The translations under genes and the position numbers were made by a program. A stretch of DNA of 63,648 nucleotides from a bacterium (GTDB taxonomy: Bacteria; Patescibacteriota; Saccharimonadia; UBA4664; JBBRNT01): NCBI GenBank assembly GCA_043767845.1, contig JAYUFZ010000021.1, positions 1 through 63,648 of the forward strand, written 5' to 3'. The notes below the pieces were generated by a model. It saw only the letters and a list, made by a program, of their open reading frames with translations, was not told the DNA's origin and ran no database searches. Within the stretch, counting starts at the first letter, position 1. Every line of letters starts with the position of its first letter. Positions 7,554 to 57,370 of this stretch are shown piece by piece.

Positions 7554-9793
7554 CCGTGCCTAAATCTAAAGCAGGAAAACGGACCGAGCCATCCGCAGCG
7601 CCAAAGAAATTTCGTCCAAACTTGATCAAACCGTTCAGCAAGCATTCCTATGTTTATATCCTGATCGTGCTATTCGTGAGTTTTGGCCTATTCGCCATAT
7701 TTCGCAGCCGAGCAGCAGGCAATACAGTAACAGACGCGCCGTATTGCTCTTCCAAGGATACAATTCAAGCCAACGCCCTGTACCTGTCGTCATCTGGTAA
7801 TAATTCCAATCCTGGCACTTTTACGGCGCCTAAGTTTGATCTGCAAGGCTGGACGCCAGAAGCCGGAAAAACCATCTATCTGCGAGGGGGGAGTTATGCG
7901 AATTTCAATGCCGTGTTGTGGGGTCGAACGGTCACCGGAGCTACGAATAACATTGTCATTAGAAATTATCCTGGCGAGCTGCCGATACTGGCTGGAGGTG
8001 CTTCGTTCATGTCGCTTCAATCCTCGTCGGCTCACGACATCGTCGTGCATGGACTCTATTTTCAGTCCTACACCGACTCGGTTATATCCGGTGTAGCTGA
8101 CGGCCCGGCTGGTGGTTTACCGGGCAGGGCCGGGGGCCCGTACAATGTAACTATCGAATGCAGTACGTTTTACCGCACCACATCGGGCCATGGTATATAC
8201 CTCAGCGGTTATGGCGACGTCTATGATGCCGCCAGCAAATTGGCAAATCGTGTACATGATTGGACTATTAAATATAACAATTTTGACGGGCAAGACGATG
8301 CTGCTCCGTGGTACGTTGACGCGCTTGGCGTCAAGCACACCCTAGCCGGCATCCACGGATACCATGTCAACGACGCCTACAATATCCAGATCGACCACAA
8401 CCAGTTTAGCCAAAACCATTATGGTATTCTGGTCTCTACCGATGGACAGAATAATTGGACGATCGAGAACAATTCGTTCTACAACAACACCGTCGCTATG
8501 GGGGTCACTGATTACACAGAACGATGCCCCTATTTGAACGACCCAAACGACCCAAATTCCGGGCGCTGCATGAACTGGACCGACTTTCACGACGTCATAA
8601 TTCGCAAGAATGTGGTGCATTCACTGGCTGGGCAAGTTGCCTTCAAGGCCGAGTCGACCTGGCTGTACAATCAAATGCTCACTTCGGCACCCTATCCAAA
8701 ACCGCTGGCATTCATAGAATCGAATAATACCTTTTACGGCGGATCGTGCCTGGTGCGCTGGAATGGGGTGGCGGGCAGCGCAGGCACTTGCTTCACCGAC
8801 CTATCTTCCTATCAATCGGCGCTCAACGGGCTGGGAGCGCCGATTGATCCGGCTCAAGGCAGTGGCGACTTGGCAATCGACCCGCAGTTTGTGGATGCTG
8901 CACAGGGTAACTTTACGACCAATAACGCCCAAATTAATGCCAACGGTTGGGGGTGCTGCTCAGTTGGCGGTCCCATAGCTACACCAACGCCTTCTCCAGC
9001 CCCATCTCCCATTACACCGACTCCCACGCCGACTCCGGCGGGTATCACAAATGTTCCATGCACTGCCAGCTGCCTATGGCCTGTTTCGCTTGCACCGGCC
9101 AGTGAGCTCTCAGCTGGCCAAGCTGTAACCGTCGGCGTTCGTTGGTCTTCGTCTGCGCCGGGCGCTGTCACGGCAATTCGTTGGTACAAATCGCCGGGAG
9201 ATAGTGGCCAGCATACCGTGAGCCTGTGGTCGAGCGGTGGCGGGCTCTTGTCTCAAGCGACATCTACCGCAGAGACTTCAGCCGGTTGGCAGCAAACTGG
9301 TCTCGCTTCACCCATCAACATTGCGGCGCAGTCCATGTACGTAGCTTCCGTTTTCAACCCTACAGGTGCCTTTAGCTACACGACGGGGGGACTGGCCGCA
9401 GCTCAAACGACTGGCCCATTGACCGCACCAAATAGCGTAAATGGCATATATAGCTATGGCACCTCAGCCACTTTCCCGACCCTTAGCTACCAAGCTACTA
9501 ATTATTTTGTCGATGTTGCCTTTAGTGCTTCGATTGCTACCCCTACACCTGCTCCGACGGTCGTGCCGACTCCCGCGCCAACACCCACTCCGACGCCTGT
9601 ACCAACACCGCTTCCTTCCTGCACCAAGTCTGGCGATGCTAACTGTGATGGTCGCGTAAACTCGCTCGACCTCCAAGCTGTACTTTCGAATTACGGCAAG
9701 CGCACAACCATTCGTGGATCGGGCGATCTAACTGGTGATGGGGTAGTCAACGTATTCGACCTCTCGCAGGTTTTACGGAACTGGGGCAAATAA
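7550..9793 (+). CDS. Secreted right-handed beta-helix (pectin-lyase-like) protein with DUF4082-like module and dockerin
   Basis: 'LYLSSSGNNSNPGT...GKTIYLRGGSY' opening and 'I.I.NN.F' coils typical of parallel beta-helices; 'VTVGVRW...GAVTAIRWYK...HTVSLWS..G.LL...GWQ' matches DUF4082; dockerin at C-terminus; ATGA overlap with upstream stop. Confidence 0.8.
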   Translation: MTVPKSKAGKRTEPSAAPKKFRPNLIKPFSKHSYVYILIVLFVSFGLFAIFRSRAAGNTVTDAPYCSSKDTIQANALYLSSSGNNSNPGTFTAPKFDLQGWTPEAGKTIYLRGGSYANFNAVLWGRTVTGATNNIVIRNYPGELPILAGGASFMSLQSSSAHDIVVHGLYFQSYTDSVISGVADGPAGGLPGRAGGPYNVTIECSTFYRTTSGHGIYLSGYGDVYDAASKLANRVHDWTIKYNNFDGQDDAAPWYVDALGVKHTLAGIHGYHVNDAYNIQIDHNQFSQNHYGILVSTDGQNNWTIENNSFYNNTVAMGVTDYTERCPYLNDPNDPNSGRCMNWTDFHDVIIRKNVVHSLAGQVAFKAESTWLYNQMLTSAPYPKPLAFIESNNTFYGGSCLVRWNGVAGSAGTCFTDLSSYQSALNGLGAPIDPAQGSGDLAIDPQFVDAAQGNFTTNNAQINANGWGCCSVGGPIATPTPSPAPSPITPTPTPTPAGITNVPCTASCLWPVSLAPASELSAGQAVTVGVRWSSSAPGAVTAIRWYKSPGDSGQHTVSLWSSGGGLLSQATSTAETSAGWQQTGLASPINIAAQSMYVASVFNPTGAFSYTTGGLAAAQTTGPLTAPNSVNGIYSYGTSATFPTLSYQATNYFVDVAFSASIATPTPAPTVVPTPAPTPTPTPVPTPLPSCTKSGDANCDGRVNSLDLQAVLSNYGKRTTIRGSGDLTGDGVVNVFDLSQVLRNWGK

Positions 9794-14728: not shown

Positions 14729-15406
14729 CTACTTTTTGCCAATAAAACGTATTAAGTTGTGCACGCCTTTTTCGTTGTCTTTGTAACTTTCACCGGAGTT
14801 ATCAAGCAGAATACTATCAAAATCCGAGGTGAGTGTAGCTAGCGAAGTAGTATCAAAGAAGCGCTTGGTTTTGCCGTCTGCTTGGTAGCAATCGGCCTCG
14901 AGCATTACACCTTTGCCAAACTCGGGATCTTGTTTCGAGTTAACTAGAGTCGCTAGCAGGCCGCCTTCTTTGAGTACGCGCTTGATCTCATCAAAAATCT
15001 CGGTAGTTGCCTGGTAACTGAAATAGTGTAGCGATAAGTGCGCATAAACTACATCAAAACTGGAGCTAGGGAAGGGGAATGGTTGGCGCAAGTCGAGTGG
15101 CTGGTATGAGATGGTTTCGGTAATAGTCTTATCAGTTCTCGAGCTTGCTATGTCGAGGGCGCTTTGCTCTATATCGGTAGAGGTTACTTGATATCCAAGC
15201 TCGGCGAAGTAGCGACTATCTTGACCTTGGCCGGCGCCGAGCTCTAATATGGAGCCCGTTTTGGGAAAGTGAGGCACAACGGTCTCAGCAAAAATAGACG
15301 GCTTATATAGCCAATTCTCGCCTTTATATTTGTCATGTAGGGCAGCCCAAACATTAGTCATAGGTGTTTCAGCGATTAAGTGATTAACTTGGACGGGCCA
15401 AGGCAC
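14729..15406 (-). CDS. Class I SAM-dependent methyltransferase
   Basis: Motif I 'ILELGAGQGQDS', 'FDVVYAHLSLHYF', 'LKEGG'. Real start may be the internal MTNVW ATG. Confidence 0.85.
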   Translation of the reverse strand: MPWPVQVNHLIAETPMTNVWAALHDKYKGENWLYKPSIFAETVVPHFPKTGSILELGAGQGQDSRYFAELGYQVTSTDIEQSALDIASSRTDKTITETISYQPLDLRQPFPFPSSSFDVVYAHLSLHYFSYQATTEIFDEIKRVLKEGGLLATLVNSKQDPEFGKGVMLEADCYQADGKTKRFFDTTSLATLTSDFDSILLDNSGESYKDNEKGVHNLIRFIGKK

Positions 15407-40574: not shown

Positions 40575-40663
40575 GTATATTAGCGTCAATACTGTAAAAA
40601 ACAATTGACAAAAATGACGTTTTGATCTTATACTGTGCCTATCCCAAGGTATGGGAGTACCAC

Positions 40664-40789
40664 TTGAAAGGTTGTGTCTTGAGAGATCAAGCAGCTGTGC
40701 AAAGCGAACTGGAAGCAGATCGCCGAGCCAAGAAGCAGAAGCCCAAGTTCGTCAACCGCCGCCCCGCCACCAGGGGAGTACGGCGATGA
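40664..40789 (+). CDS. 41-aa basic protein, first of a five-ORF operon (TTG start)
   Basis: GGGAG SD 6 nt before TTG; MKGCVLRDQAAVQSELEADRRAKKQKPKFVNRRPATRGVRR*; stop overlaps the next ATG. Confidence 0.45.
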   Translation: MKGCVLRDQAAVQSELEADRRAKKQKPKFVNRRPATRGVRR

Positions 40790-41100
40790 GCAATAGCGGC
40801 CCCCATCATTGGCAAGGTATCCGGCTCGATGGAGGGAACCCGACAGCTCGTGTTGCTTTCGGTAGACAGCAATCGGCTACCGAACTGAGCCGCCAGAAGT
40901 TCGATCAGAAGCAAGGTCTGGTCGATAAGATCATTGCTCTGCTTCGGAGCCGCGGCCAGGCCGAAGACCGAGTTCGAGGCACGCTTGTAGGGCGCAATCT
41001 CAGTGTTCAGCGGCTGAAAGAACTGCTAGAGTTCGCCGAGGCTGACGAAGTGAGCTTTCAAGCAATGCAGCGCGCTCAAGCCGGTCGAAAGGCCAGCTAA
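40786..41100 (+). CDS. Small hypothetical protein (operon ORF 2)
   Basis: GGGGAG SD and ATG 40786, in frame with track ORF 40651-41100. Confidence 0.6.
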   Translation: MSNSGPHHWQGIRLDGGNPTARVAFGRQQSATELSRQKFDQKQGLVDKIIALLRSRGQAEDRVRGTLVGRNLSVQRLKELLEFAEADEVSFQAMQRAQAGRKAS

Positions 41101-41441
41101 TGACGACAGCTCACGTTTATCGCAGCCCAGTGCGCCTCTCAGGCGGACAACGACGGCTTGAGAAAGTTAGTCGGACGATTGCTGCCAAGTATGACCACGA
41201 GAAAGCCAAAGTGCTCACGCACAAAGGCAAGAAAGATTTGATCGCGGCCATGCTCCGGGCATTGGGCCAGAGAGAACCCTATCGTATATGTGGAGTTCTG
41301 CTTTCCAGCAAGATCGGCGACGAAACACTCGATCGCACCATTGAACAGTTGGAGAACCGCATGATCACAGAAGGTCATACCGATGAGCTGGAGCAGATCC
41401 AGGCGGGCCAAGAGTCCGCTCAGCCCCGGCAGGCAGTCTGA
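41100..41441 (+). CDS. Small hypothetical protein (operon ORF 3)
   Basis: TAATG overlap with upstream ORF. Confidence 0.62.
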   Translation: MTTAHVYRSPVRLSGGQRRLEKVSRTIAAKYDHEKAKVLTHKGKKDLIAAMLRALGQREPYRICGVLLSSKIGDETLDRTIEQLENRMITEGHTDELEQIQAGQESAQPRQAV

Positions 41442-41704
41442 TGGCCCAGCCTCAGATCTCCGGTCTGGTTCACAACTGCGCCTTCAGCAATCTGGAGAAA
41501 GGATTGCAGGCCGACCGCAAGCATCGCAGCCTGTTTGCTCAGCGTCAGCAGGTCGTATCGCTACTCAGTTCTCTAGGGCGAGAAACCAACTATGTGAACG
41601 GAGTTGCCATCAAAAGCGCCCCAAAAAGCCTGCTGACTAAAGCGATTCCGCGGCTCGAAGCCGAACTCGAGGCACAACGCTCCAGTCGGCAGGTGAGCGC
41701 ATGA
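41441..41704 (+). CDS. Small hypothetical protein (operon ORF 4)
   Basis: TGATG overlap with upstream ORF. Confidence 0.62.
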   Translation: MAQPQISGLVHNCAFSNLEKGLQADRKHRSLFAQRQQVVSLLSSLGRETNYVNGVAIKSAPKSLLTKAIPRLEAELEAQRSSRQVSA

Positions 41705-41859
41705 GCAGTAGCAAGATTGGCCGAGCAGAAGTCGTTGCACGTATCCTGGAGCAGGAACCCGGTTTGACCGCCGATAAGCTTTCCTGTGTTCCCAACAAGG
41801 TCCTCCTCAAGAGAGTCAATAAGCCCAAACCCTCCACACCCAACGCCAAGGCCTCCTAG
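41701..41859 (+). CDS. 52-aa hypothetical protein (operon ORF 5)
   Basis: ATGA overlap and AGGTGA SD; MSSSKIGRAEVVARILEQEPGLTADKLSCVPNKVLLKRVNKPKPSTPNAKAS*. Confidence 0.5.
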   Translation: MSSSKIGRAEVVARILEQEPGLTADKLSCVPNKVLLKRVNKPKPSTPNAKAS

Positions 41860-41865
41860 GCCACC

Positions 41866-41918
41866 CGTCCCGCCACTACCCAGATCCTAACTGGGCGGTG
41901 GCGGGACGATTTGTTTTT
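41866..41918 (+). terminator. Terminator of the five-ORF operon
   Basis: cgtcccgccact...ggtggcgggacg stem followed by atttgttttt. Confidence 0.7.
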
Positions 41919-49202: not shown

Positions 49203-49320
49203 AATTATTACGAGGGTTGGAGGGTGTTGTGTTGTCGTCTGCAAATTCACAGGCGGCCACGCACTAGCAGCTAACCTGCTAGCGGACTTTGAAAAGTTTT
49301 GTTAAGTATATGAATTCCTC

Positions 49321-49377
49321 GCTGGGCGGATGGGGGAGTATTTGTAGAGGGTACAAATACTCCGCTACCCGTCCAGC
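49321..49377 (+). promoter_or_regulatory. Long hairpin in the nrdJ leader
   Basis: Perfect 12-bp inner stem 49335-46/49352-63 plus outer stem 49321-29/49369-77. Confidence 0.5.
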
Positions 49378-49435
49378 AATCCGCAGTCGGGCAACACCAA
49401 GAAGCCCGCGTCTGCGGGAGGAGGAAACACCAAAA

Positions 49436-51694
49436 GTGAGTGCAACCGCATCAACTCTGCTGCCCCGGCGTGCCGGGGGATACGCAAGCATCAAGAGTGA
49501 GGTCGACAAGCTCGATCCGAGCAAGACCTTTATCCCTGGCATCCATCTGTACGCTACTGAGCGGTTCCTGGCTGGTGAGCAGCGCGAGCGTGATGACGAG
49601 TTCTACTACCTCTGCTACCGCTTGCCGGACTCGATCATCGAGCCCTACAAGACGCGGAACGTGCGCTGGGGCTTCCCAATCGGTGGTGGCAACACCCTGG
49701 GCGAGATCAACTGGTACTCCAAGTACTCGCGGGTCAAGCTCGACCAGACCAAGGAACGGTTCTGGGAGGGTTGTCGCCGAGTGATCGAGGGGATGTACTC
49801 CATTCAGAAGGAGTACGCCCTCTACCATACCCTTCCCTGGAGCGACGACACGGCGCATACTTCGGCCGCGGAAGCCTTCGACCGGCTGTTTGCCGGCAAG
49901 TGGAGCCCGCCCGGGCGCGGCTTGTGGATGATGGGGACCTTCTTCGTGAACGGCCTCCGCGATTCTAGCGCGCTGCAGAACTGCGGCTTCCTCTCAACGG
50001 CCAAGATCGGCTACCAGGGTTTCGACCCGGCCTTCCCGTTCATGCGGCTCATGGAGATGAGCATGCTCGGCGTCGGTGTCGGCTTCGACACCCGCGGCGC
50101 CGGTCGGCTCGACCTGCATCAGCCCATCCACAACAGTAACGATCCGATCGTTATCGATGACAGCCGCGAGGGCTGGTATGAGTCGGTCGCCATGCTGCTG
50201 CGCAGCTACATGCTGCCTGAACAGCTGGCTGTGCGCTTCGACTACAGCGAGATCCGACCGCTGGGGGCACTGATCGGCGGCTTCGGTGGCCGGGCGGCTG
50301 GTCCTGACCCGCTGATCCAGCTGCACAGGCGGCTGCATCACCTCCTCGACTACCGCAAGGGGGAGCAGCTGACGTCCAGTGACATCGTCGAAATCATGAA
50401 CATGATCGGCAAGTGCGTCGTGGCAGCCAATGTTCGTAGCTCGGCCGAAATCGCCCTCGGTGACCCCACGGACGAGGACTTCCTGGACCTTAAGAATCCG
50501 GCGGTCAATGCCGAACGGCTGGGGTTCATCCCTGGCCCCGATGGTTCGCCGATGGTTGGGGCCGACAAGGTCTGGCTCAAGGCTAAGGGAGGTGGTTGGG
50601 GGTACACCTCGAACAACTCAGTACTGGCTGAGGTCGGCATGAACTATGCGGGTGTTGCCCGCCGTACCGGAATCAACGGAGAGCCGGGATATGTCTGGCT
50701 GGACAATTGCCGCGGCTATGGTCGGATGGCCGACCCGCGCAACGACAAGGACCATCGGGTCATGGGCGTCAACCCCTGTGGCGAGCAACCGTTGGAAGAC
50801 AACGAGCTCTGCACGCTGGTCGAGACTTACCCCACGAATTGCGCCAACCAGGCTGACTACCTGCGGACGCTGAAGTTCGGCTACCTCTACGGCAAGACGG
50901 TCACGCTACTCATGACCCACTGGCCGGAGACAAATGAAAAGATGATCCGCAACCGGCGTATCGGTACCTCCATGTCCGGCCTGGCGATGTTCGTCGAGAG
51001 CAAGGGCTGGGCCGAGCTTGGCAAGTGGCAGAACGCTGGCTACGCCGAGATCCTGCGTTGGGACAAGATCTACTCCGAATGGCTCGGTGTGCGTGAGTCC
51101 ATCAAGGTCACGACCATCAAGCCCTCCGGCACCGTCAGCTTGCTGTTCGGTGTGACCCCCGGCGCGCACTGGCCGACAGCCCGTTCGCGCTACCTGCGCC
51201 GACTGCGCTTCACCATCACCGAGCTGATCGCTGATGCCATGAAGGCGGCTGGCTACCACGTCGAGCCGAACAGTGACAATCCCGATGTAGGGGTTGTCGT
51301 GACCTGTCCAGCACTGGGTCCCGATATCCGAGGCGACCGCGAAGTGCCGCTGTGGCAGAAGGTTGCCCTCGGCGCCCAGTGCCAGCGTGACTGGGCAGAC
51401 AATGCCGTCTCTTTGACGGCCTCGTTTGTCCCGAGCGAAGCTGACCAAATCGGTGAGATCCTCAAGGCCAACGACTTCCGTCTGAAGTCGATTTCCTTCC
51501 TGCCGCTCGGCGAGGACGACAACGATACGCCCTACCCGCAGATGCCTTACCAGAAGGTGCCGGACGCGGATTGGCAGGCTCTGGCCGATGCCATCGGACC
51601 GCTCGACTGGGACATGCTCTACGCCCAGCCGATCGCCCCCGAGGGTGAGGCCTACTGCACCACCGACGTCTGCGAGCTGCCGGCTCGCGACTGA
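49436..51694 (+). CDS. nrdJ: Class II (AdoCbl-dependent) monomeric ribonucleoside-triphosphate reductase
   Basis: 'WSPPGRGLW', 'SALQNC', 'SMLGVGVGFD', 'NVRSSAEIALG', 'NPCGEQ', 'TTIKPSGTVS', C-terminal 'YCTTDVCE'; GTG start after GGAGGAGG. Confidence 0.95.
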   Translation: MSATASTLLPRRAGGYASIKSEVDKLDPSKTFIPGIHLYATERFLAGEQRERDDEFYYLCYRLPDSIIEPYKTRNVRWGFPIGGGNTLGEINWYSKYSRVKLDQTKERFWEGCRRVIEGMYSIQKEYALYHTLPWSDDTAHTSAAEAFDRLFAGKWSPPGRGLWMMGTFFVNGLRDSSALQNCGFLSTAKIGYQGFDPAFPFMRLMEMSMLGVGVGFDTRGAGRLDLHQPIHNSNDPIVIDDSREGWYESVAMLLRSYMLPEQLAVRFDYSEIRPLGALIGGFGGRAAGPDPLIQLHRRLHHLLDYRKGEQLTSSDIVEIMNMIGKCVVAANVRSSAEIALGDPTDEDFLDLKNPAVNAERLGFIPGPDGSPMVGADKVWLKAKGGGWGYTSNNSVLAEVGMNYAGVARRTGINGEPGYVWLDNCRGYGRMADPRNDKDHRVMGVNPCGEQPLEDNELCTLVETYPTNCANQADYLRTLKFGYLYGKTVTLLMTHWPETNEKMIRNRRIGTSMSGLAMFVESKGWAELGKWQNAGYAEILRWDKIYSEWLGVRESIKVTTIKPSGTVSLLFGVTPGAHWPTARSRYLRRLRFTITELIADAMKAAGYHVEPNSDNPDVGVVVTCPALGPDIRGDREVPLWQKVALGAQCQRDWADNAVSLTASFVPSEADQIGEILKANDFRLKSISFLPLGEDDNDTPYPQMPYQKVPDADWQALADAIGPLDWDMLYAQPIAPEGEAYCTTDVCELPARD

Positions 51695-51756: not shown

Positions 51757-52215
51757 TTGCAATCAATTTGCAGTAAAGCCATGATTAGTACACCTCGCCT
51801 TCAAGGAGTACGTATGCAAATTGACATCGGCCACAGAGAAACCATTGAGCTAAATGCCTCAGAAGAACTGGGCCATATACTGCGTGACATCCGAATCACA
51901 TACGATGCCATACTGGCCACATTGCGGATTAGTTGGCCGATTGACGGTACTTGGATCGAGTGGGTTTCAATCCCTCCATGGTGGTCAGTATTTAAAGACG
52001 CATCTCAGCACCAGTGGGCGCCGCCTGGTGATAAGAAAAGCTTTGTGCTTGGAGATGGTGAGAAGCTTGATTTCGCCCCACTGATTTATGACTACCGCAC
52101 GAAAGACTTTGTGCACCATTCTGATATCTCTGTTCAGGCAACAGCTAGTGGCTGGCTGGTTACGAGGGATATTTACGGAGATGAATACACTATGCTGCTG
52201 ATTGCGAGCGCATAA
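51757..52215 (+). CDS. Hypothetical protein
   Basis: Open frame coupled (TAATG) to the next ORF; start uncertain (51757, 51781 or 51814). Confidence 0.55.
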   Translation: MQSICSKAMISTPRLQGVRMQIDIGHRETIELNASEELGHILRDIRITYDAILATLRISWPIDGTWIEWVSIPPWWSVFKDASQHQWAPPGDKKSFVLGDGEKLDFAPLIYDYRTKDFVHHSDISVQATASGWLVTRDIYGDEYTMLLIASA

Positions 52216-52652
52216 TGAGCCAAGGCGTGGCAATCGAAGCCTTCTTTGACCGGTTCATTGCAGAATGCCTGGAGCACCCAGAGATCATTAGCCGTATCAG
52301 GGTCATGGGTGTGACTGGCAATGGACTGGTGGTTACGGTTTGCGAACCGTCCAACGGCTACTTCAAAATTTGCAGAGGCGGGGACGAATCGTTAGTGATC
52401 ATTGAGCTGGCGCCAAGCTTTCTCGATCCATCTTTCGTGCCGTCGCTGGCCGAAGTTAAAACCAAGGCCTTGTATCGCAATGGTGCTGCCATCATTACCA
52501 CCCACAACGGCGAGTTATTTCTGTCCCGTTACAGCCAGCTGGACGACAATAAGTCCGAGCATCTCGGCGATTTCCCAAGCGGTGTGGCTAGGCTGGGGTT
52601 TCAGCCAGTCGTGCTGTGGCGCCAACCTATGAAGGTCGGTGGTGCGGCCTAG
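52215..52652 (+). CDS. Hypothetical protein
   Basis: 145-aa ORF followed by a hairpin and T-run. Confidence 0.55.
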   Translation: MSQGVAIEAFFDRFIAECLEHPEIISRIRVMGVTGNGLVVTVCEPSNGYFKICRGGDESLVIIELAPSFLDPSFVPSLAEVKTKALYRNGAAIITTHNGELFLSRYSQLDDNKSEHLGDFPSGVARLGFQPVVLWRQPMKVGGAA

Positions 52653-52705
52653 CCGGTGTTTTGTCTCAAGCAGACGAAATGCCGGCGTTTTTTGTTGGGG
52701 GCCGT

Positions 52706-52885
52706 TTGACAACTCAAACAACCAAGGTATATAGTAACTCCCATGAAGTCCCATATTGTCGCAGTCATGAATGTCCTAGCAGTCTCGATTAAGAGCCTGG
52801 ACCTTCGCGTACCCGACAACCTAGAGACTTAGCCCAACCCAACCAGCAATTATTCGACTAAGTCTCTAGCAATAGAGGCTTTTTT
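52706..52885 (+). promoter_or_regulatory. Leader-peptide transcription attenuator
   Basis: TTGACA-18-TATAGT promoter; 1:2 (52781-86/52824-29), 2:3 (52821-32/52858-69, 12 bp perfect) and 3:4 terminator (gtctcta-gcaa-tagaggc-TTTTTT). Confidence 0.75.
52743..52832 (+). CDS. 29-aa Val-rich leader peptide
   Basis: MKSHIVAVMNVLAVSIKSLDLRVPDNLET*; four GTC codons within nine codons; stop lies inside segment 2. Confidence 0.65.
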   Translation: MKSHIVAVMNVLAVSIKSLDLRVPDNLET

Positions 52886-52936
52886 GATAGCTAGTGGGGA
52901 ATTGACAACCCGATCCATCCAGTCAAAGGAGCAAAT

Positions 52937-53230
52937 GTGGCAAAGCCCCGAGTAGATGTGGCAGTACCGAGTTGTAAGCTGAGCTTTGGCGGCCAGCAAC
53001 CATCCTCGCCTCAGTCGGTGATTAATGCGCTTGTGGCTCATGGCGTTGAGGTAGATGAGCGCGACGAGCAGTTCAGCAAGCGTATTTCCCGCGGTTGGTC
53101 GCAAACAATTCAGCTTCCGCAGGGTTGCGAAGTCGACCAGCTACGAGCAGCGCTCTCACCATTGGGCGCTCTTCTCACCCCCAAGAACTACGACAATCTT
53201 CGACCCTACCAGGGAAAGGCCCAGTCATAA
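52937..53230 (+). CDS. Hypothetical protein, first gene after the attenuator
   Basis: AAGGAG SD 5 nt before GTG. Confidence 0.6.
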   Translation: MAKPRVDVAVPSCKLSFGGQQPSSPQSVINALVAHGVEVDERDEQFSKRISRGWSQTIQLPQGCEVDQLRAALSPLGALLTPKNYDNLRPYQGKAQS

Positions 53231-53448
53231 TGGCTAACCATGCGGATAGGCAAGCATCGATGCACAAGACCTACGAGCTCCTTGCGCACCTCAACCCCGA
53301 CCGCATCCGCCGACTGTTCGAAGGCGTCACGGTTGTGAAGCCAAAAGCACACAAAATCCGCACCGGCGCGCGGGTGGTCATCGACTACGGCGGCCTTGAC
53401 GAAGCCGCACGTCATCGTCTTTTCGCCCACGGCCGTTTCCTTACCTGA
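53230..53448 (+). CDS. 72-aa hypothetical protein
   Basis: TAATG overlap; MANHADRQASMHKTYELLAHLNPDRIRRLFEG..., in frame with track ORF 53095-53448. Confidence 0.55.
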   Translation: MANHADRQASMHKTYELLAHLNPDRIRRLFEGVTVVKPKAHKIRTGARVVIDYGGLDEAARHRLFAHGRFLT

Positions 53449-53461
53449 AAGGTTCACAACT

Positions 53462-53611
53462 GTGTCCGCAACCGATGCCCAACTCGAACAACTCGAAGCC
53501 ATGAAACGCGCGGCCTTGCTGCCCAAAGTGGCGCCACCAACCGCCCCAATGGACCCCAAGCTCGAAGCTGAGCGTGACGCCTATGTCGCTGGCCTCAGAC
53601 ACAGCGATTGA
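53462..53611 (+). CDS. 49-aa hypothetical protein
   Basis: GTG after AAAGG; in frame with track ORF 53396-53611; followed by a 13-bp hairpin at 53636-65. Confidence 0.45.
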   Translation: MSATDAQLEQLEAMKRAALLPKVAPPTAPMDPKLEAERDAYVAGLRHSD

Positions 53612-53687
53612 TTGACCAACCGACCATCCATTTTTGGCCCCAGAACGCAGCAGCGTTCTGGGGCCGCTTCATGCTATTATAGGTGTG

Positions 53688-53945
53688 ATGCAAGTTACTA
53701 TTTTATACCCAACCCACAGCCCTCTAGAGCGCGAGGCCGAAGTGTTGGCTAAGCGCCTATCTGACTTTCGGATTGAGCCCCGGATGGTCAATAGTGAGAG
53801 CCGGGAGTATGACGCCATGCGTGAAACATATAGCATTCTCGGCTCGCCGGCGATTTTTTTGACCCGTGATGACGGCAGCATGGTCGAGAGTTGGCAGAAT
53901 AGCTGGCCGCTGGCTGAAGACATCAGTTATTTGTACCACATGTAA
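53688..53945 (+). CDS. Small thioredoxin-fold-like protein lacking CxxC
   Basis: 'YSILGSPAIFLTRDDG.MVESW' resembles the thioredoxin cis-Pro region; leaderless TATTAT-7nt-ATG. Confidence 0.55.
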   Translation: MQVTILYPTHSPLEREAEVLAKRLSDFRIEPRMVNSESREYDAMRETYSILGSPAIFLTRDDGSMVESWQNSWPLAEDISYLYHM

Positions 53946-54214
53946 TGCTAGTAGTAATCATGGTCACCTTCATCGATCTGGCTAGCATTATTTTCAATGT
54001 GCTCATTTTTCTGCGAGTTATACTGAGCTGGTTCTCCAAGCCGGAGAGTAGCCGCTTTCATAAATTTGTTTACGATCTGACCGAGCCACTACTCGGGCCA
54101 ATTCGCAAATTAGTCCCAATGGGCGGTGTCATCGACGTGTCTCCGATAATTGCCTACATTATCTTGCAACTGCTCTCGACCGGCGCGCATATGTTGCTGG
54201 GAAAGTTGGTTTAA
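53945..54214 (+). CDS. yggT: YggT family membrane protein
   Basis: 'RVILSWF', 'LTEPLLGPIRKLVP.GG.IDVSPII'. Confidence 0.93.
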   Translation: MLVVIMVTFIDLASIIFNVLIFLRVILSWFSKPESSRFHKFVYDLTEPLLGPIRKLVPMGGVIDVSPIIAYIILQLLSTGAHMLLGKLV

Positions 54215-54261
54215 GCTATACTATAGCCACAATCTGACATACATCCCCGCCGTCGGCGGGG

Positions 54262-54426
54262 TGAGTGGCCATCAACCACGAAGGTAGCCGAAAGAACGTC
54301 CTAGGACTAGTAGAACCGGCCGCACGGCGAGCGTAAACGTCCAATGAAGTCCACCAAGCAGGGTGGCACCTTCCGTATTTATGACGGGGCCCTGCAAATC
54401 GTGGATTTTTTATTTGCTAAAGGAGT
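54262..54426 (+). promoter_or_regulatory. T-box riboswitch, ultrashort-stem-I (actinobacterial ileS) type
   Basis: Stem I gtgg-ccATCaa-ccac with Ile AUC specifier (54271-73); stem II 'tagccgaaagaac...tagtagaacc'; antiterminator gcaggg-TGGCACC-ttccgt/acgggg-ccctgc. Confidence 0.85.
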
Positions 54427-54430
54427 TTAT

Positions 54431-57370
54431 ATGAAAAAAGTTGGCACGGCAGATTTTCCGGCGTTTGAGGCAGAAATGCTTAGGACCTGGGAAAGCGAAA
54501 AGACGTTTGAGAAAAGTATGGAACAGCGCAAAGATGCCCCAAACTTTAGTTTCTACGATGGGCCACCGTTTGCTAATGGCTTGCCGCATTTCGGTCACTC
54601 ACTCGTCACGGCTATCAAAGATTCGCTGGGGCGCTACAAAACGATGCAGGGGTATTACGTGGCCCGCCGCAATGGCTGGGACTGCCACGGCCTACCCGTC
54701 GAGTTTGCCATCGAAAAACAGCTTGGTGTGAGCGGCAAGAGGCAGATTATGGAAGAAGTTGGGCTGGAAAAATTCAACCAAGCCTGCCGGGACTCGGTAT
54801 TCCTCTACAAAGCCGATTGGGAAGCCTTCTTCCGGCGCATTGGACGCTGGACGCAGACCGAAGAGGCCTACGCCAGTATTGATCGCGATTATACCGAAAG
54901 CGTTTGGTGGGTGCTGGGTCAAGTGAACCAAAAAGGCCTGCTCTATAAAGGCTACAAAAGCATGCCGTACTGCCCGCGCTGCGAAACGCCGTTATCCAAT
55001 TTTGAGCTCAATGAAGGCTACAAAGACGATGTCAGTGATCCGAGCGTCTATGTGAAATTTGCTGTGGTAGGCAAGCCTGGCACTTACTTCTTGGCCTGGA
55101 CGACGACGCCCTGGACGCTGGCTGCCAATAGTGCGCTGGCCGTTGATGGTAAGGCTGATTATGTAAAAGTCGAGTTACTTGATGATGGTGATAGCTGGAA
55201 AAAAGGTGATCGATTGATACTAGCTAAGGCCCGATTGGACGTACTTGATTTACGCAAAGCCGAATATAAGGTTCTTGAGACCAAGAAAGGTAAGGAGTTG
55301 GCTGGGACCAAGTATCTGCCTTTGTACAATGTCGAAAGGCTGACCGATTCCGAAAAAGTGGCGGCTTACCAAATGTATGTCGATAGCTCGGCCAGTATTG
55401 AAGACGGTACAGGTATCGTCCACACTGGTACGCGCTATGGCGAGACCGATCTTGATCTCTGTTTGCGCATGGGCTTGCCGATGATCGAGACGGTTGACCG
55501 CAGTGGGCATATGACCAAGGTTTTAGGTGACGAAATCGGCGGTATGTTCTTTAAGAAGGCCGATAAATACATCATTGAGGATCTAACTAAGCAGGGCAAA
55601 ATCTTTGCCGCTGAGACTTTTAAGCATACCTATCCATTCTGCTACCGCTGCGACAGCCCTCTCTTGTACTTCGCGATCACTACTTGGTTTGTGGGGGTTT
55701 CGACTATCCGTGACAAGATGCTTAAAACCGCCCAAGAGATCAACTGGACACCAGGGCACATTAAGGACGGCCGCTTTGGCAAGTGGCTGGAGGGCGCCAG
55801 GGATTGGGCCATTAGCCGCAACCGTTACTGGGGCGCGCCGCTGCCTATTTGGGTCAATGAGGCCGATGAGAACGACTACATCGTTATCTCTAGTATGCAG
55901 GAGTTGCGTGACCTCGCTGGCGAGGATACCCAGCTTGACGATCTGCATCGGCCGTTTATCGACGAAGTGATATTTGAAAAAGATGGCAAGAAGTACAAGC
56001 GTGTCGAAGAAGTTTTTGACTGCTGGTTTGAGTCGGGGAGTATGCCCGTGGCCCAGCAGCATTATCCTTTTGAGAATAAAGAGGTGTTTGAGAAGTCGTT
56101 TCCGGCGGACTATATCGGCGAGGGCCTCGACCAAACCCGCCTGTGGTTCTATGTGCAGCATGTGCTAGCAACTATCCTTTTCGACCGACCGGCCTATAAG
56201 AATGTGCTCGTCAACGGCATGATCATGGCGGCTGATGGACAAAAGCTGAGCAAGCGGCTCAAGAACTATCCGCCGGTTGAGGATGTCTTTGGTAAAGAGG
56301 GGGCCGACACGTTGCGTTTCTATCTGCTCGGCAACGACCAGGCCCTCAGCGCCGACTACATGCGATTCAATCGGGAAGCGATGGTCGACATCCAGCGCAA
56401 TGTGTTCTCAACCCTTTGGAATACACTCAGCTTCTTATCGATGTATGCAGAGATTGATAAATGGCAGTCGACCGATAAGCTAGTACAGCCTAAGTCAAAG
56501 AGCGTTCTGGACCAATGGATCCTCGCGCGCTTGAATCAGACAATAGGCGAGATGACGGTGGCTGCTGATAAATATGAGATCGCGGCTGCCCTGCGGCCAC
56601 TGCGCAACCTCGTCGATGACCTGAGCAATTGGTATGTCCGCCGCAGCCGTCGCCGGTTCTGGAAAAGTGAGGACGATAGCGATAAGGCGTCGGCTTACGC
56701 GACATTGCATTACACGTTGGCTCGCATTTGTCAGCTCCTAGCACCATGGGCGCCGTTTGCCGCCGACAAAATGTGGCGGGAGTTGATGGCTGGGACTGAG
56801 GAAGCTGTGAGCGTTCACTTAAGTGACTGGCCGAAGGCCGAGAAGGTCGATAAGAAAATTCTTGAATCTATGTCGTTAGCTCGCCAGGTTATAACCGAAG
56901 CACTAGCACAGCGTGCAGAAAAGGGTAGAAAAGTCCGGCAACCATTGAGTCGAATGGTATATTCCTTACCAAATAAAATAGTCCTGGGGGATGATCTGAA
57001 TCAAATTATTATGGATGAAGTTAACGTAAAATCGTGTAACGAAATAGTTTCCCCAGATGGTAAGCTTGCTTTCTATGTCGACTTGAACACAGAAATTACT
57101 CAAGAGCTAGCACGCGAAGGCCTGGTCCGCGAAGTGGTGCGGCACGTCCAAACAGCGCGCAAAAATACTGGCCTGGACGTCGACGACCGCATAAATTTGG
57201 CGCTCATAACTCCCAACGAAGAACTACAAGCAGCCATCGAACAATTCGACAAACTAATCATCAAAGAAACTCTGACCACCGGCTTCAGCCTTGAACTTGG
57301 CGTCCGCGACACCACCCCGCCGGTCATGGCCAAGGAGGGCGGGCTGTGGGTGGAGCTGAGTAAGGTATAA
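54431..57370 (+). CDS. ileS: Isoleucine--tRNA ligase, type 2 (eukaryote-like)
   Basis: 'FYDGPPFANGLPHFGH', 'GWDCHGLPVE', 'AWTTTPWTL', 'DWAISRNRYWG', 'KLSKRLKNYP'; AAAGGAG SD before ATG 54431. Confidence 0.98.
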   Translation: MKKVGTADFPAFEAEMLRTWESEKTFEKSMEQRKDAPNFSFYDGPPFANGLPHFGHSLVTAIKDSLGRYKTMQGYYVARRNGWDCHGLPVEFAIEKQLGVSGKRQIMEEVGLEKFNQACRDSVFLYKADWEAFFRRIGRWTQTEEAYASIDRDYTESVWWVLGQVNQKGLLYKGYKSMPYCPRCETPLSNFELNEGYKDDVSDPSVYVKFAVVGKPGTYFLAWTTTPWTLAANSALAVDGKADYVKVELLDDGDSWKKGDRLILAKARLDVLDLRKAEYKVLETKKGKELAGTKYLPLYNVERLTDSEKVAAYQMYVDSSASIEDGTGIVHTGTRYGETDLDLCLRMGLPMIETVDRSGHMTKVLGDEIGGMFFKKADKYIIEDLTKQGKIFAAETFKHTYPFCYRCDSPLLYFAITTWFVGVSTIRDKMLKTAQEINWTPGHIKDGRFGKWLEGARDWAISRNRYWGAPLPIWVNEADENDYIVISSMQELRDLAGEDTQLDDLHRPFIDEVIFEKDGKKYKRVEEVFDCWFESGSMPVAQQHYPFENKEVFEKSFPADYIGEGLDQTRLWFYVQHVLATILFDRPAYKNVLVNGMIMAADGQKLSKRLKNYPPVEDVFGKEGADTLRFYLLGNDQALSADYMRFNREAMVDIQRNVFSTLWNTLSFLSMYAEIDKWQSTDKLVQPKSKSVLDQWILARLNQTIGEMTVAADKYEIAAALRPLRNLVDDLSNWYVRRSRRRFWKSEDDSDKASAYATLHYTLARICQLLAPWAPFAADKMWRELMAGTEEAVSVHLSDWPKAEKVDKKILESMSLARQVITEALAQRAEKGRKVRQPLSRMVYSLPNKIVLGDDLNQIIMDEVNVKSCNEIVSPDGKLAFYVDLNTEITQELAREGLVREVVRHVQTARKNTGLDVDDRINLALITPNEELQAAIEQFDKLIIKETLTTGFSLELGVRDTTPPVMAKEGGLWVELSKV

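Follow-up and report, generated by a model that had tools for sequence, protein, structure and literature searches.

Transcription attenuation by leader peptides is a textbook form of gene control that is usually coupled to amino-acid biosynthesis. In the enterobacterial attenuators (trpL, hisL, leuL, thrL, ilvL/ivbL and pheL), a short open reading frame with a Shine-Dalgarno sequence and runs of cognate codons precedes the cognate biosynthetic genes. In the bmrB-bmrCD system of Bacillus subtilis, slow translation of a short upstream ORF, whichever amino acid is concerned, reportedly favours the antiterminator over the terminator; antibiotic-responsive attenuators of this type precede resistance or efflux genes and have ORFs led by a Shine-Dalgarno sequence. 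Leaderless leader ORFs have also been described. In the experimentally studied ilvBNC operon of Corynebacterium glutamicum, transcription starts 1 nt from the start codon of a leader that has no ribosome-binding site, and the RNA forms three hairpins: an anti-antiterminator, by which the leaderless start is shielded, plus an antiterminator and a terminator (PMC11857589). The peptide, IlvL (MTIIRLVVVTARRLP), contains a dense run of Ile, Val and Leu, and the leader controls branched-chain biosynthesis. Leaderless polycysteine short ORFs in mycobacteria (the “Cys ribulon”) form the first cistron and are read by the ribosome as a sensor for the genes of the operon (10.1101/834739); these carry Cys runs and act on translation, by unmasking a downstream ribosome-binding site.

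Our literature search found no paper describing leader-peptide attenuation in Patescibacteria. Here we analysed a stretch of 63,648 nt from a Saccharimonadia genome (the whole of which we will henceforth refer to as the window), in which a model working from the letters alone (the sequence-only reading) had proposed a valine-sensing attenuator in front of three small genes. Among known systems the leaderless ilvBNC attenuator comes closest, and the locus shares with it a leaderless start, a three-hairpin layout and an expected short terminated transcript (all of them predicted here from sequence and folding). Unlike in ilvBNC, the first pairing segment is the very 5' end of the RNA and would pair across the whole ORF, the peptides (23-33 aa) have no conserved run, and what follows the leader is a set of orphan genes, or of tRNA genes in some relatives, in a presumed auxotroph. 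The enterobacterial attenuators share with this locus the alternative pairing of segments 1:2, 2:3 and 3:4 (here as predicted pairings), a stop codon placed such that a ribosome masks segment 2, and an intrinsic terminator with a U tract, whereas Shine-Dalgarno sequences, cognate codon runs and cognate biosynthetic genes are all absent from the Saccharimonadia leaders. In contrast to the Cys ribulon, these leaders have a T-tract terminator as their output and lack a run of a single residue; nor do they carry any pointer to antibiotics. On the evidence below, we consider it probable that the locus is a cis-acting transcription attenuator, read by the ribosome on a leaderless mini-ORF and representing a family that some of the Saccharimonadia have conserved.

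The unit lies on the plus strand, and its upstream border is the terminator (15-bp stem and T run; 52652..52697) of a preceding orphan operon (51757-52652). Immediately downstream is a promoter at 52706..52735 (TTGACA at 52706-11 and TATAGT at 52730-35, separated by 18 nt) that matches 11 of 12 consensus positions and was the sole sigma70-like site found by a consensus scan of both strands between 51500 and 54500. The leader ATG, at 52743, is 7 nt past the -10 box, which places the predicted 5' end of the RNA at or adjoining the start codon. The leader ORF (52743..52832), identified from its translation, codon usage and comparison with relatives, has 29 codons followed by TAG and encodes MKSHIVAVMNVLAVSIKSLDLRVPDNLET. 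Codon-usage log-odds amounted to 0.15-0.48 bits per codon in the reading frames given here, with negative values in the other two frames. Further downstream, a Shine-Dalgarno sequence (AAAGGAG, 52925..52931) precedes ORF1 (97 aa, 52937..53230), followed by ORF2 (72 aa, 53230..53448), which is translationally coupled to ORF1 through a TAATG overlap, and by ORF3 (49 aa, GTG start, 53462..53611). The unit ends in a closing hairpin of 13 bp with a 4-nt loop (53636..53665), which has equivalents in relatives; its T tail is weak in the window genome and T-rich in the relatives. As a side observation, a look through sequencing runs for this stretch turned up no RNA run, and four DNA runs contained the same organism only, together with one strain variant that begins downstream of the attenuator unit.

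We then considered how the leader RNA may fold. Segment 1, the 5'-terminal GAAGUCC (52745..52751, nt 3-9 of the RNA), takes in part of the start-codon region and, in minimum-free-energy folds, pairs with segment 2, thereby closing a hairpin round the whole ORF. Segment 2 (52821..52832; CTAGAGACTTAG as DNA, CUAGAGACUUAG as RNA) has the stop codon (TAG/UAG) as its 3' end. It is separated by a C/A-rich and G-poor spacer (52833..52857), the loop of the 2:3 helix, from segment 3 (52858..52869; CTAAGTCTCTAG as DNA, CUAAGUCUCUAG as RNA), whose sequence is exactly the reverse complement of segment 2 and which serves as the antiterminator's 3' arm. The resulting 2:3 helix is a perfect 12-bp duplex (-14.6 kcal/mol). 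Segment 3 shares 10 nt with the stem-loop of an intrinsic terminator, 9 of them in its 5' arm; this terminator (AAGTCTCTA-GCAA-TAGAGGCTT, 52860-81, followed by T6 at 52880-85) has a 9-bp stem and a GCAA loop and is modest in strength (-10.0 kcal/mol). The parts named in the sequence-only reading (leaderless ORF, GTC codons, 12-bp pairing, GCAA terminator with six T, three downstream ORFs and closing hairpin) were all found where it had put them; segment 1, to which it had assigned no coordinates, was placed by the fold. An additional hairpin within the body of the ORF (52756..52819), which appears whenever a copy of the leader is folded to minimum free energy, is possibly an RNA polymerase pause hairpin.

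Such an overlap between antiterminator and terminator is seldom produced by chance. Specifically, of 5000 dinucleotide-shuffled leaders, 1.7% had an antiterminator that overlapped the 5' arm of the terminator and reached 8 bp, 0.1% had one that reached 10 bp, and none had one of 12 bp. Across all sequence examined, 23 out of 661 terminator-like sites (3.5%) had an overlapping antiterminator of at least 8 bp, and 6 of those 23 belong to the leader family. Two other antiterminator-like matches in the window (at 15198 and 31748) were rejected as they lie inside coding sequence, as was a micro-ORF operon (40629-41918), which is without such a leader.

We found the same module in six other Saccharimonadia (CPR) genomes, with IleRS 54-72% identical, at the same chromosomal position, where it precedes a conserved gene of 85 aa as well as yggT and ileS. 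The seven leader copies span 52743-52890 in the window, 8103-8250 in L009, 8386-8546 in L036, 1854-1990 in L001, 8538-8676 in L003, 979-1106 in L040 and 8519-8652 in L016. All six relatives have an equivalent promoter at the same place, and the distance from the -10 hexamer to the ATG or GTG is 6-7 nt in 7/7 copies. The conserved 85-aa neighbour gene has the same spacing, and leaderless starts therefore look normal in this lineage. Relatives' leader ORFs begin with MK, and AUGAAG is invariant in the copies that start with ATG (the start in L016 is GUG). Their spacers are likewise G-poor, T tracts are present in all copies, the terminator overlaps segment 3 in every copy, and a Shine-Dalgarno sequence comparable to that of ORF1 precedes the first downstream gene in 6/6 relatives. 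Apart from a weak site in L036 (9/12 matches) at the 3' end of the unit, we detected no other sigma70-like promoter in the interval that separates the leader promoter from that of the next conserved gene. A metagenome scan with the 85-aa neighbour returned 5 loci, none of which carried the module and in which ftsZ abuts the 85-aa gene. A phage origin was also considered and rejected: a leader-pattern scan of viral contigs gave 32 chance matches, none of them leader-like.

The alternative pairings are conserved as structures. Over seven core columns of the 2:3 helix, 49 out of 49 cells are paired, with compensatory double changes at columns -3, -1, +3, +4 and +5 (covariation was counted in Python on manual anchors, MAFFT alignments of the leaders being structurally inconsistent). 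The 1:2 pairing (5-9 bp) is mostly invariant, with one covarying column (nt 7 with segment 2), and is absent from the L016 fold. The minimum-free-energy fold of the full leader consists of 1:2 plus the terminator in 6/7 copies; masking nt 1-30 yields the 2:3 fold in 7/7 copies, and a ribosome mask at the stop codon yields the terminator in 7/7. When transcripts are cut after segment 3 and carry no ribosome, 2:3 is the most stable fold in 6/7 copies. Finally, a ribosome at the first in-frame stop codon would cover at least two thirds of segment 2 in 6/7 copies, compared with about 12% in shuffles (footprint -12/+14), and would do so in 7/7 copies with a footprint of -15/+12 (counted by hand). 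The 1:2/2:3/3:4 logic claimed in the sequence-only reading, with 1:2 as a putative pairing, recurs in six further genomes, with base-pair covariation, a stop codon at segment 2 and no second promoter. Together, the recurrence of the leader parts in six genomes and the lack of another promoter for the downstream genes give good support to a ribosome-read attenuator.

These alternative hairpins, the best-supported feature of the leader, could in principle also form a switch that something other than the ribosome sets (a protein that binds RNA, say, or an uncharged tRNA or small ligand), with the ORF being incidental. The presence of tRNA genes 3' of the leader terminator in three relatives (one of them, a true tRNA-Pro gene in L009, begins 20 nt past the leader T tract) would fit such a switch, which we nevertheless think improbable: an ORF of 23-33 codons runs from +1 to segment 2 in 7/7 copies despite bodies that are not alignable, and the 2:3 loop shows neither structure nor conservation. 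Furthermore, there is no correspondence between the codons of the leaders and the tRNAs that follow; a single CCG in L009 matches tRNA-Pro(CGG), while the Thr codons of L016 (ACA and ACG) mismatch tRNA-Thr(GGU). No Rfam family matched the leader at the gathering threshold, nor did any when the limit was relaxed to E=5, and there is no T-box-like specifier or conserved bulge; a T-box riboswitch was rejected on these grounds.

If the leader is read by the ribosome, the following sequence of events can be proposed. Transcription from the strong promoter would begin at or next to the AUG, and a 70S ribosome would load on this 5' AUG while the RNA is being made. A ribosome keeping in step with RNA polymerase would reach the stop codon and cover segment 2, allowing 3:4 pairing and termination at about 52885. 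One lagging anywhere in the ORF would disrupt segment 1 and the ORF hairpin and set segment 2 free; the freed segment would form the 12-bp 2:3 helix and polymerase would read into ORF1-3. If no ribosome has loaded, 1:2 together with the terminator is predicted to be the most stable fold, which would also bury the start codon; given that 2:3 is already the most stable fold in truncated RNAs, the state without translation could, however, be read-through rather than termination. Since a lag anywhere in the ORF would free segment 2, the signal may be the speed at which a hydrophobic-rich peptide is translated, and would thus report general or hydrophobic amino-acid supply, or ribosome stress, and not valine in particular.

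The sequence-only reading had assigned the signal to valine. GTC Val is found at codons 6, 8, 11 and 14 of the window leader and GTA Val at codon 23, meaning that Val accounts for 5 out of 29 codons, four of which fall inside nine codons. If the physiological signal were a shortage of Val-tRNA that stalls ribosomes at the four GTC codons, the leader would be a Val-specific or strictly branched-chain attenuator. Such a signal would agree with the Val density of the window peptide, with the NVVVII of L009 (the only copy that resembles it in Val content, and one that recalls IlvL), with the presence of Val within codons 4-8 in 6/7 peptides and with a pooled I+L+V content of 32% versus 22% (P=0.0013). 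However, the number of Val residues per peptide across the seven copies is 5, 5, 3, 3, 1, 2 and 1, at varying positions, so that the conservation of Val codons in homologous leaders, proposed by that reading as a check, did not hold. The pooled Val excess (11% versus a background of 7.5%) falls short of significance (P=0.05), the enrichment of F, L and M is no smaller than that of Val, and GTC is not rare here, being the commonest Val codon (32%). In addition, nothing connects the genes downstream with Val metabolism, and ribosomes stalled at codons 11 and 14 would be beyond the footprint able to cover segment 1. We thus see little chance that valine is the signal sensed. No run of one amino acid that would mark a specific signal was found in the leader peptides, and the copies have in common only a general enrichment in hydrophobic residues (41% versus 27%, P=3e-5). 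In the window copy, the four GTC codons would make valine one among several effective triggers. The apparent valine sensor dissolves on comparing relatives, an example of how the codon content of one copy can mislead.

The same hydrophobic enrichment, together with a recurring G-hydrophobic patch, could be explained in another way, namely by a stand-alone gene for a hydrophobic micro-protein of 23-33 aa that acts in trans and has its own terminator, with the hairpins serving mRNA stability or folding, or by a dual function as in Sinorhizobium peTrpL/rnTrpL. Trans-acting peptides and sRNAs derived from attenuators are documented (PMC7298713, PMC6614838). A strong promoter plus a terminator would give an abundant RNA of about 140 nt, and L001 and L003 share the pattern ...G(A/L)F..G.IL.G(D/N)A with synonymous codon differences, which hints that the peptide itself may matter. 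Outside this pair the peptides are not alignable, though, and the hydrophobic patches (10-12 residues) are too short for a membrane helix. A micro-protein would also leave unexplained why segment 3 overlaps the terminator arm with covariation, why the stop codon lies at segment 2 and why the downstream genes, including tRNA genes, are promoterless; with no partner gene nearby, such as an Rgg-type receptor, we regard it as rather unlikely. A pheromone was rejected as well: there is a slight likeness to short hydrophobic pheromones of streptococci, but no Rgg-type neighbour, and conservation is lacking at the C-termini. A module resembling type I toxins, in which a small hydrophobic toxin is encoded by an mRNA locked through 5'-3' pairing, would likewise account for the small hydrophobic peptide and for the predicted pairing between the 5' end of the RNA and the 3' portion of the ORF. 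Considering that the consensus scan detected no minus-strand (antisense) promoter in the window or L009, that the hydrophobic stretch is again too short for a membrane helix, and that the module keeps a fixed place in the synteny and is followed by genes that run in its direction and lack promoters, we hold such a toxin to be very improbable indeed.

What the attenuator would control differs between genomes, as the content of downstream genes is different in every genome that carries the leader, and no tRNA gene was found in the window. ORF1, ORF2 and ORF3, described from the sequence alone as small genes of unassigned function, proved to be true orphans in family and homologue searches. Specifically, Pfam yielded no family for ORF1-3 or for the downstream genes of relatives, PHROGs, NCBIfam and PADLOC none for ORF1-3, and word-based searches with ORF1 and ORF2, as well as an exhaustive phmmer search with ORF1, returned self-matches and repeat-protein noise only. 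A tblastn search of all island proteins against 80 related loci also gave no match. ORF1 is weakly related to the first downstream gene of L036 and of L016. A single-sequence AlphaFold model of ORF1 was uninformative (pLDDT 48), while a model built from a four-sequence alignment reached a pLDDT of 69; a fold search with the ORF1 model found generic ferredoxin-like domains only (best E=0.09). With moderate confidence, the model suggests that ORF1 is a ferredoxin-like alpha/beta domain.

CPR bacteria are devoid of amino-acid biosynthesis, and Saccharimonadia are presumed auxotrophs. The starvation or host-detachment response put forward in the sequence-only reading is speculative. Equally speculatively, and with considerable doubt on our part, the leaders may be lineage-specific leaderless attenuators that read overall translation speed, and through it the amino-acid supply from the host, and that gate tRNA genes and fast-evolving small ferredoxin-like proteins as a ribosome-directed regulon of the starved or detached state. 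A conserved, compact switch of about 145 nt would provide a simple reporter in organisms whose genetics is very difficult to approach. It would also offer a first handle on how these epibionts sense their translational or nutritional state, and would point to what responds to it, namely small proteins of unassigned function and, in some genomes, tRNA genes.

The putative attenuator unit sits in a variable stretch of a Saccharimonadia (CPR) genome that was recovered by assembly of a sediment metagenome, with the GC-rich class II ribonucleotide reductase gene (nrdJ, 49289-51694) on one side and a conserved block on the other. This block comprises an 85-aa gene (53688-53945), yggT (53945-54214; Pfam YGGT, E=3e-20) and ileS (54344-57370). 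All elements of the unit listed by the sequence-only reading were found in place. The promoter TTGACA-18-TATAGT (52706-35; 11/12 consensus positions) is the sole sigma70-like site in 3 kb on both strands, and the ATG of a 29-codon leader ORF lies 7 nt 3' of its -10 box (from 52743; peptide MKSHIVAVMNVLAVSIKSLDLRVPDNLET; GTC at codons 6, 8, 11 and 14). Segment 2 of the leader RNA (52821-32) ends in the TAG stop and is a 12-nt perfect complement of segment 3 (52858-69), which overlaps the terminator (52860-85; 9-bp stem, GCAA loop, T6). When the leader was dinucleotide-shuffled 5000 times, antiterminators that overlap the terminator arm attained 10 bp in 5 cases and 12 bp in none. ORF1 (97 aa), which has a Shine-Dalgarno sequence, is overlapped by ORF2 (72 aa) through TAATG and followed by ORF3 (49 aa) and a closing 13-bp hairpin (53636-65); codon statistics prefer these reading frames.

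As ORF1 and ORF2 lack sequence relatives, related loci were gathered via IleRS (80 loci, best identity 72%). The same leader module was found 5' of the 85-aa gene in 6 of these, giving a family of seven copies: the window (52743-52890), L009 (8103-8250; leader peptide MKSFGTNVVVIISAPVKGLLLFVHQEASFR), L036 (8386-8546; MKSQKMCVQLTTTRRQALALGVLIVAARSERLL), L001 (1854-1990; MKSVRVNLISNGAFVGFILIGDA), L003 (8538-8676; MKRSANVMYQQGLFLAGIILMGNA), L040 (979-1106; MKPVIYFNMIDLHCAGLILFEVF) and L016 (8519-8652; (V)KTTPQLMKRYYRGFALDLFIVAPRC). In most other relatives nrdR or ftsZ directly adjoins the 85-aa gene, and the module is thus lineage-restricted and fixed in position. The attenuator lies directly 3' of the reductase terminator in L001, L003 and L009; in the window, two orphan genes intervene (51757-52652; 152 and 145 aa, ATGA start/stop overlap, own strong terminator), a pair found in 0/80 related loci. 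The orphan proteins of the variable stretch are absent from all 80 loci and have no match in Pfam, PHROGs, NCBIfam or PADLOC.

A -10 hexamer precedes the leader start codon by 6-7 nt in 7/7 copies. In all genomes read, the 85-aa gene has its own -10 box 6-7 nt ahead of its ATG and is therefore leaderless; given this shared spacing, leaderless mRNAs appear normal in the lineage. The leader 5' end, AUGAAG(U/C)C, is nearly invariant and in 6/7 minimum-free-energy folds pairs with segment 2 (the 1:2 helix), enclosing the whole ORF in a hairpin; leader nt 7 covaries with its partner (U:A, U:G or C:G). On a manual alignment, the 2:3 helix is paired in 49/49 cells over seven core columns, with compensatory double changes at five. 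Segment 3 overlaps the 5' arm of the terminator by 4-10 nt in every copy, while the terminator stems themselves vary. All seven copies have their first in-frame stop at segment 2, which a ribosome terminating there would thus cover; it would do so in 6/7 copies under one footprint assumption, compared with ~12% in shuffles, and in 7/7 with a -15/+12 footprint (hand count). Simulating a ribosome by masking nt 1-30 yielded the antiterminator in 7/7 copies, and masking the stop region yielded the terminator in 7/7. These sequence features are best explained by a ribosome-read attenuator on a leaderless ORF. A switch governed by some factor other than the ribosome would leave the conserved ORF unexplained, and we consider it improbable. 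From the leader promoter to the promoter of the 85-aa gene, the only further sigma70-like site is a weak 9-of-12 one close to the 3' end of the L036 unit, and the downstream genes thus depend on read-through.

The sequence-only reading had the attenuator sense valine and had staked this on conservation of the Val codons. These are unconserved across the copies: the leader peptides contain 5, 5, 3, 3, 1, 2 and 1 Val at varying positions, Val makes up 11% of the pooled residues (background 7.5%, P=0.05), and no other Val codon is used more often in this genome than GTC. A valine-specific sensor is accordingly a poor candidate, although the switch itself stands. What the leader peptides have in common is a general hydrophobic enrichment (I+L+V 32% vs 22%, P=0.0013; I+L+V+F+M 41% vs 27%, P=3e-5). 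This bias, as well as the similarity between the L001 and L003 peptides, would be accounted for by a stand-alone hydrophobic micro-protein or a dual-function unit; that reading is unlikely and explains neither why segment 3 overlaps the terminator, nor where the stop lies, nor why the downstream genes are promoterless. A type I toxin is very improbable, as a consensus scan of the window and L009 found no antisense promoter and the hydrophobic residues form too short a stretch for a membrane helix.

The genes 3' of the attenuator differ per genome, comprising 1-3 small, co-oriented, Shine-Dalgarno-led ORFs and then a terminator, and none belongs to a Pfam family. Word-based searches with ORF1 and ORF2 returned only the queries themselves, and an exhaustive phmmer search with ORF1 across 1.84 billion representatives yielded just three more matches, all weak and to repeat proteins. 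Shuffle-calibrated local alignments of downstream genes gave z 3.4-4.7 in 4/55 pairs (ORF1 with the first downstream gene of L036 and of L016; L001 with L003 and L009). A profile built from ORF1 and the L036 and L016 genes matched only those proteins and one close relative of the L016 gene. From the alignment of these four sequences, AlphaFold predicted a beta-alpha-alpha-beta-alpha-beta domain for ORF1 (pLDDT 69), for which Foldseek found generic ferredoxin-like domains only (HMA, ACT, NIL; E 0.09 or worse); the model hints at a ferredoxin-like fold, which is not an assignment. The stretch upstream of ORF1 (52904-52931; ATTGACAACCCGATCC...CAAAGGAG) resembles that upstream of the first downstream ORF of L009 (8351-8376; ATTGAAAACCGAGATCAAAAGGAG), and because of this similarity the two gene sets may share ancestry, with proteins no longer alignable.

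In three lineages, promoterless tRNA or tRNA-like genes lie directly between the attenuator terminator and the first downstream ORF. L009 carries a true tRNA-Pro(CGG) (8266-8339; Rfam 46 bits) starting 20 nt 3' of the T tract. L016 (8654-8857) and its close relative L086 (10-215) carry a tRNA-like gene with a ~30-nt hairpin insertion, in which the two loci differ by compensatory changes, and after it a tRNA-Thr(GGU)-like gene; L036 has one tRNA-like gene (8683-8759). Those of L016 and L036 were detected at a relaxed threshold only, and default ARAGORN and Rfam miss all except the tRNA-Pro. The leader codons do not mirror these tRNAs.

Several further observations concern the neighbourhood. The 85-aa protein, which has no Pfam family, is encoded immediately 5' of yggT-ileS in ~40/80 Saccharimonadia loci. 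A second related strain from the same sediment sample (run X1, record 5), whose contig begins at 53653, downstream of the attenuator, matches the window at ~85-90% over 53653-53758 and 54229-54990; where the window has 53758-54229, holding the greater part of the 85-aa gene and yggT, this strain has 470 unrelated letters. Long inverted repeats occupy the same intergenic position in L036 (8546-8680, ~130 nt, after the terminator and before the tRNA-like gene) and in L081, which lacks the module (868-985, ~115 nt, flanked by ftsZ and the 85-aa gene); insertion/deletion events at this hotspot may have left them behind. An operon of small, basic, translationally coupled orphan ORFs with a TTGACA promoter (40629-41918), flagged from the sequence alone, is similar in style to the genes 3' of the attenuator and has no attenuator-like leader.

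In the proposed mechanism, a ribosome keeping pace with RNA polymerase to the stop would mask segment 2, and the terminator would form. A ribosome lagging within the ORF would leave segment 2 free and segment 1 unavailable, allowing the 2:3 helix to form and ORF1-3 to be transcribed. We infer the timing of these steps, a pausing role for the ORF hairpin and the physiological trigger. With no ribosome, the 1:2 helix plus terminator is the most stable predicted full-length fold, in which the start codon would be buried too; the untranslated state could nevertheless be ON rather than OFF, because in RNAs cut after segment 3 the 2:3 helix is the most stable ribosome-free fold in 6/7 copies.

Literature searches turned up no account of leader-peptide attenuation in Patescibacteria. 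The closest known system is the ilvBNC attenuator of C. glutamicum, in which transcription start and leader start codon are 1 nt apart and the first hairpin both shields the leaderless start and serves as anti-antiterminator (PMC11857589). Mycobacterial leaderless polycysteine short ORFs share the idea of a leaderless sensor but act at a different level, on translation (10.1101/834739). Unlike these systems, the Saccharimonadia family lacks any single-residue run, pairs its extreme 5' end across the whole ORF, and stands ahead of orphan or tRNA genes in a lineage that lacks amino-acid biosynthesis. Whether the untranslated state is ON or OFF, efficient translation would keep the unit off and slow translation would turn it on.
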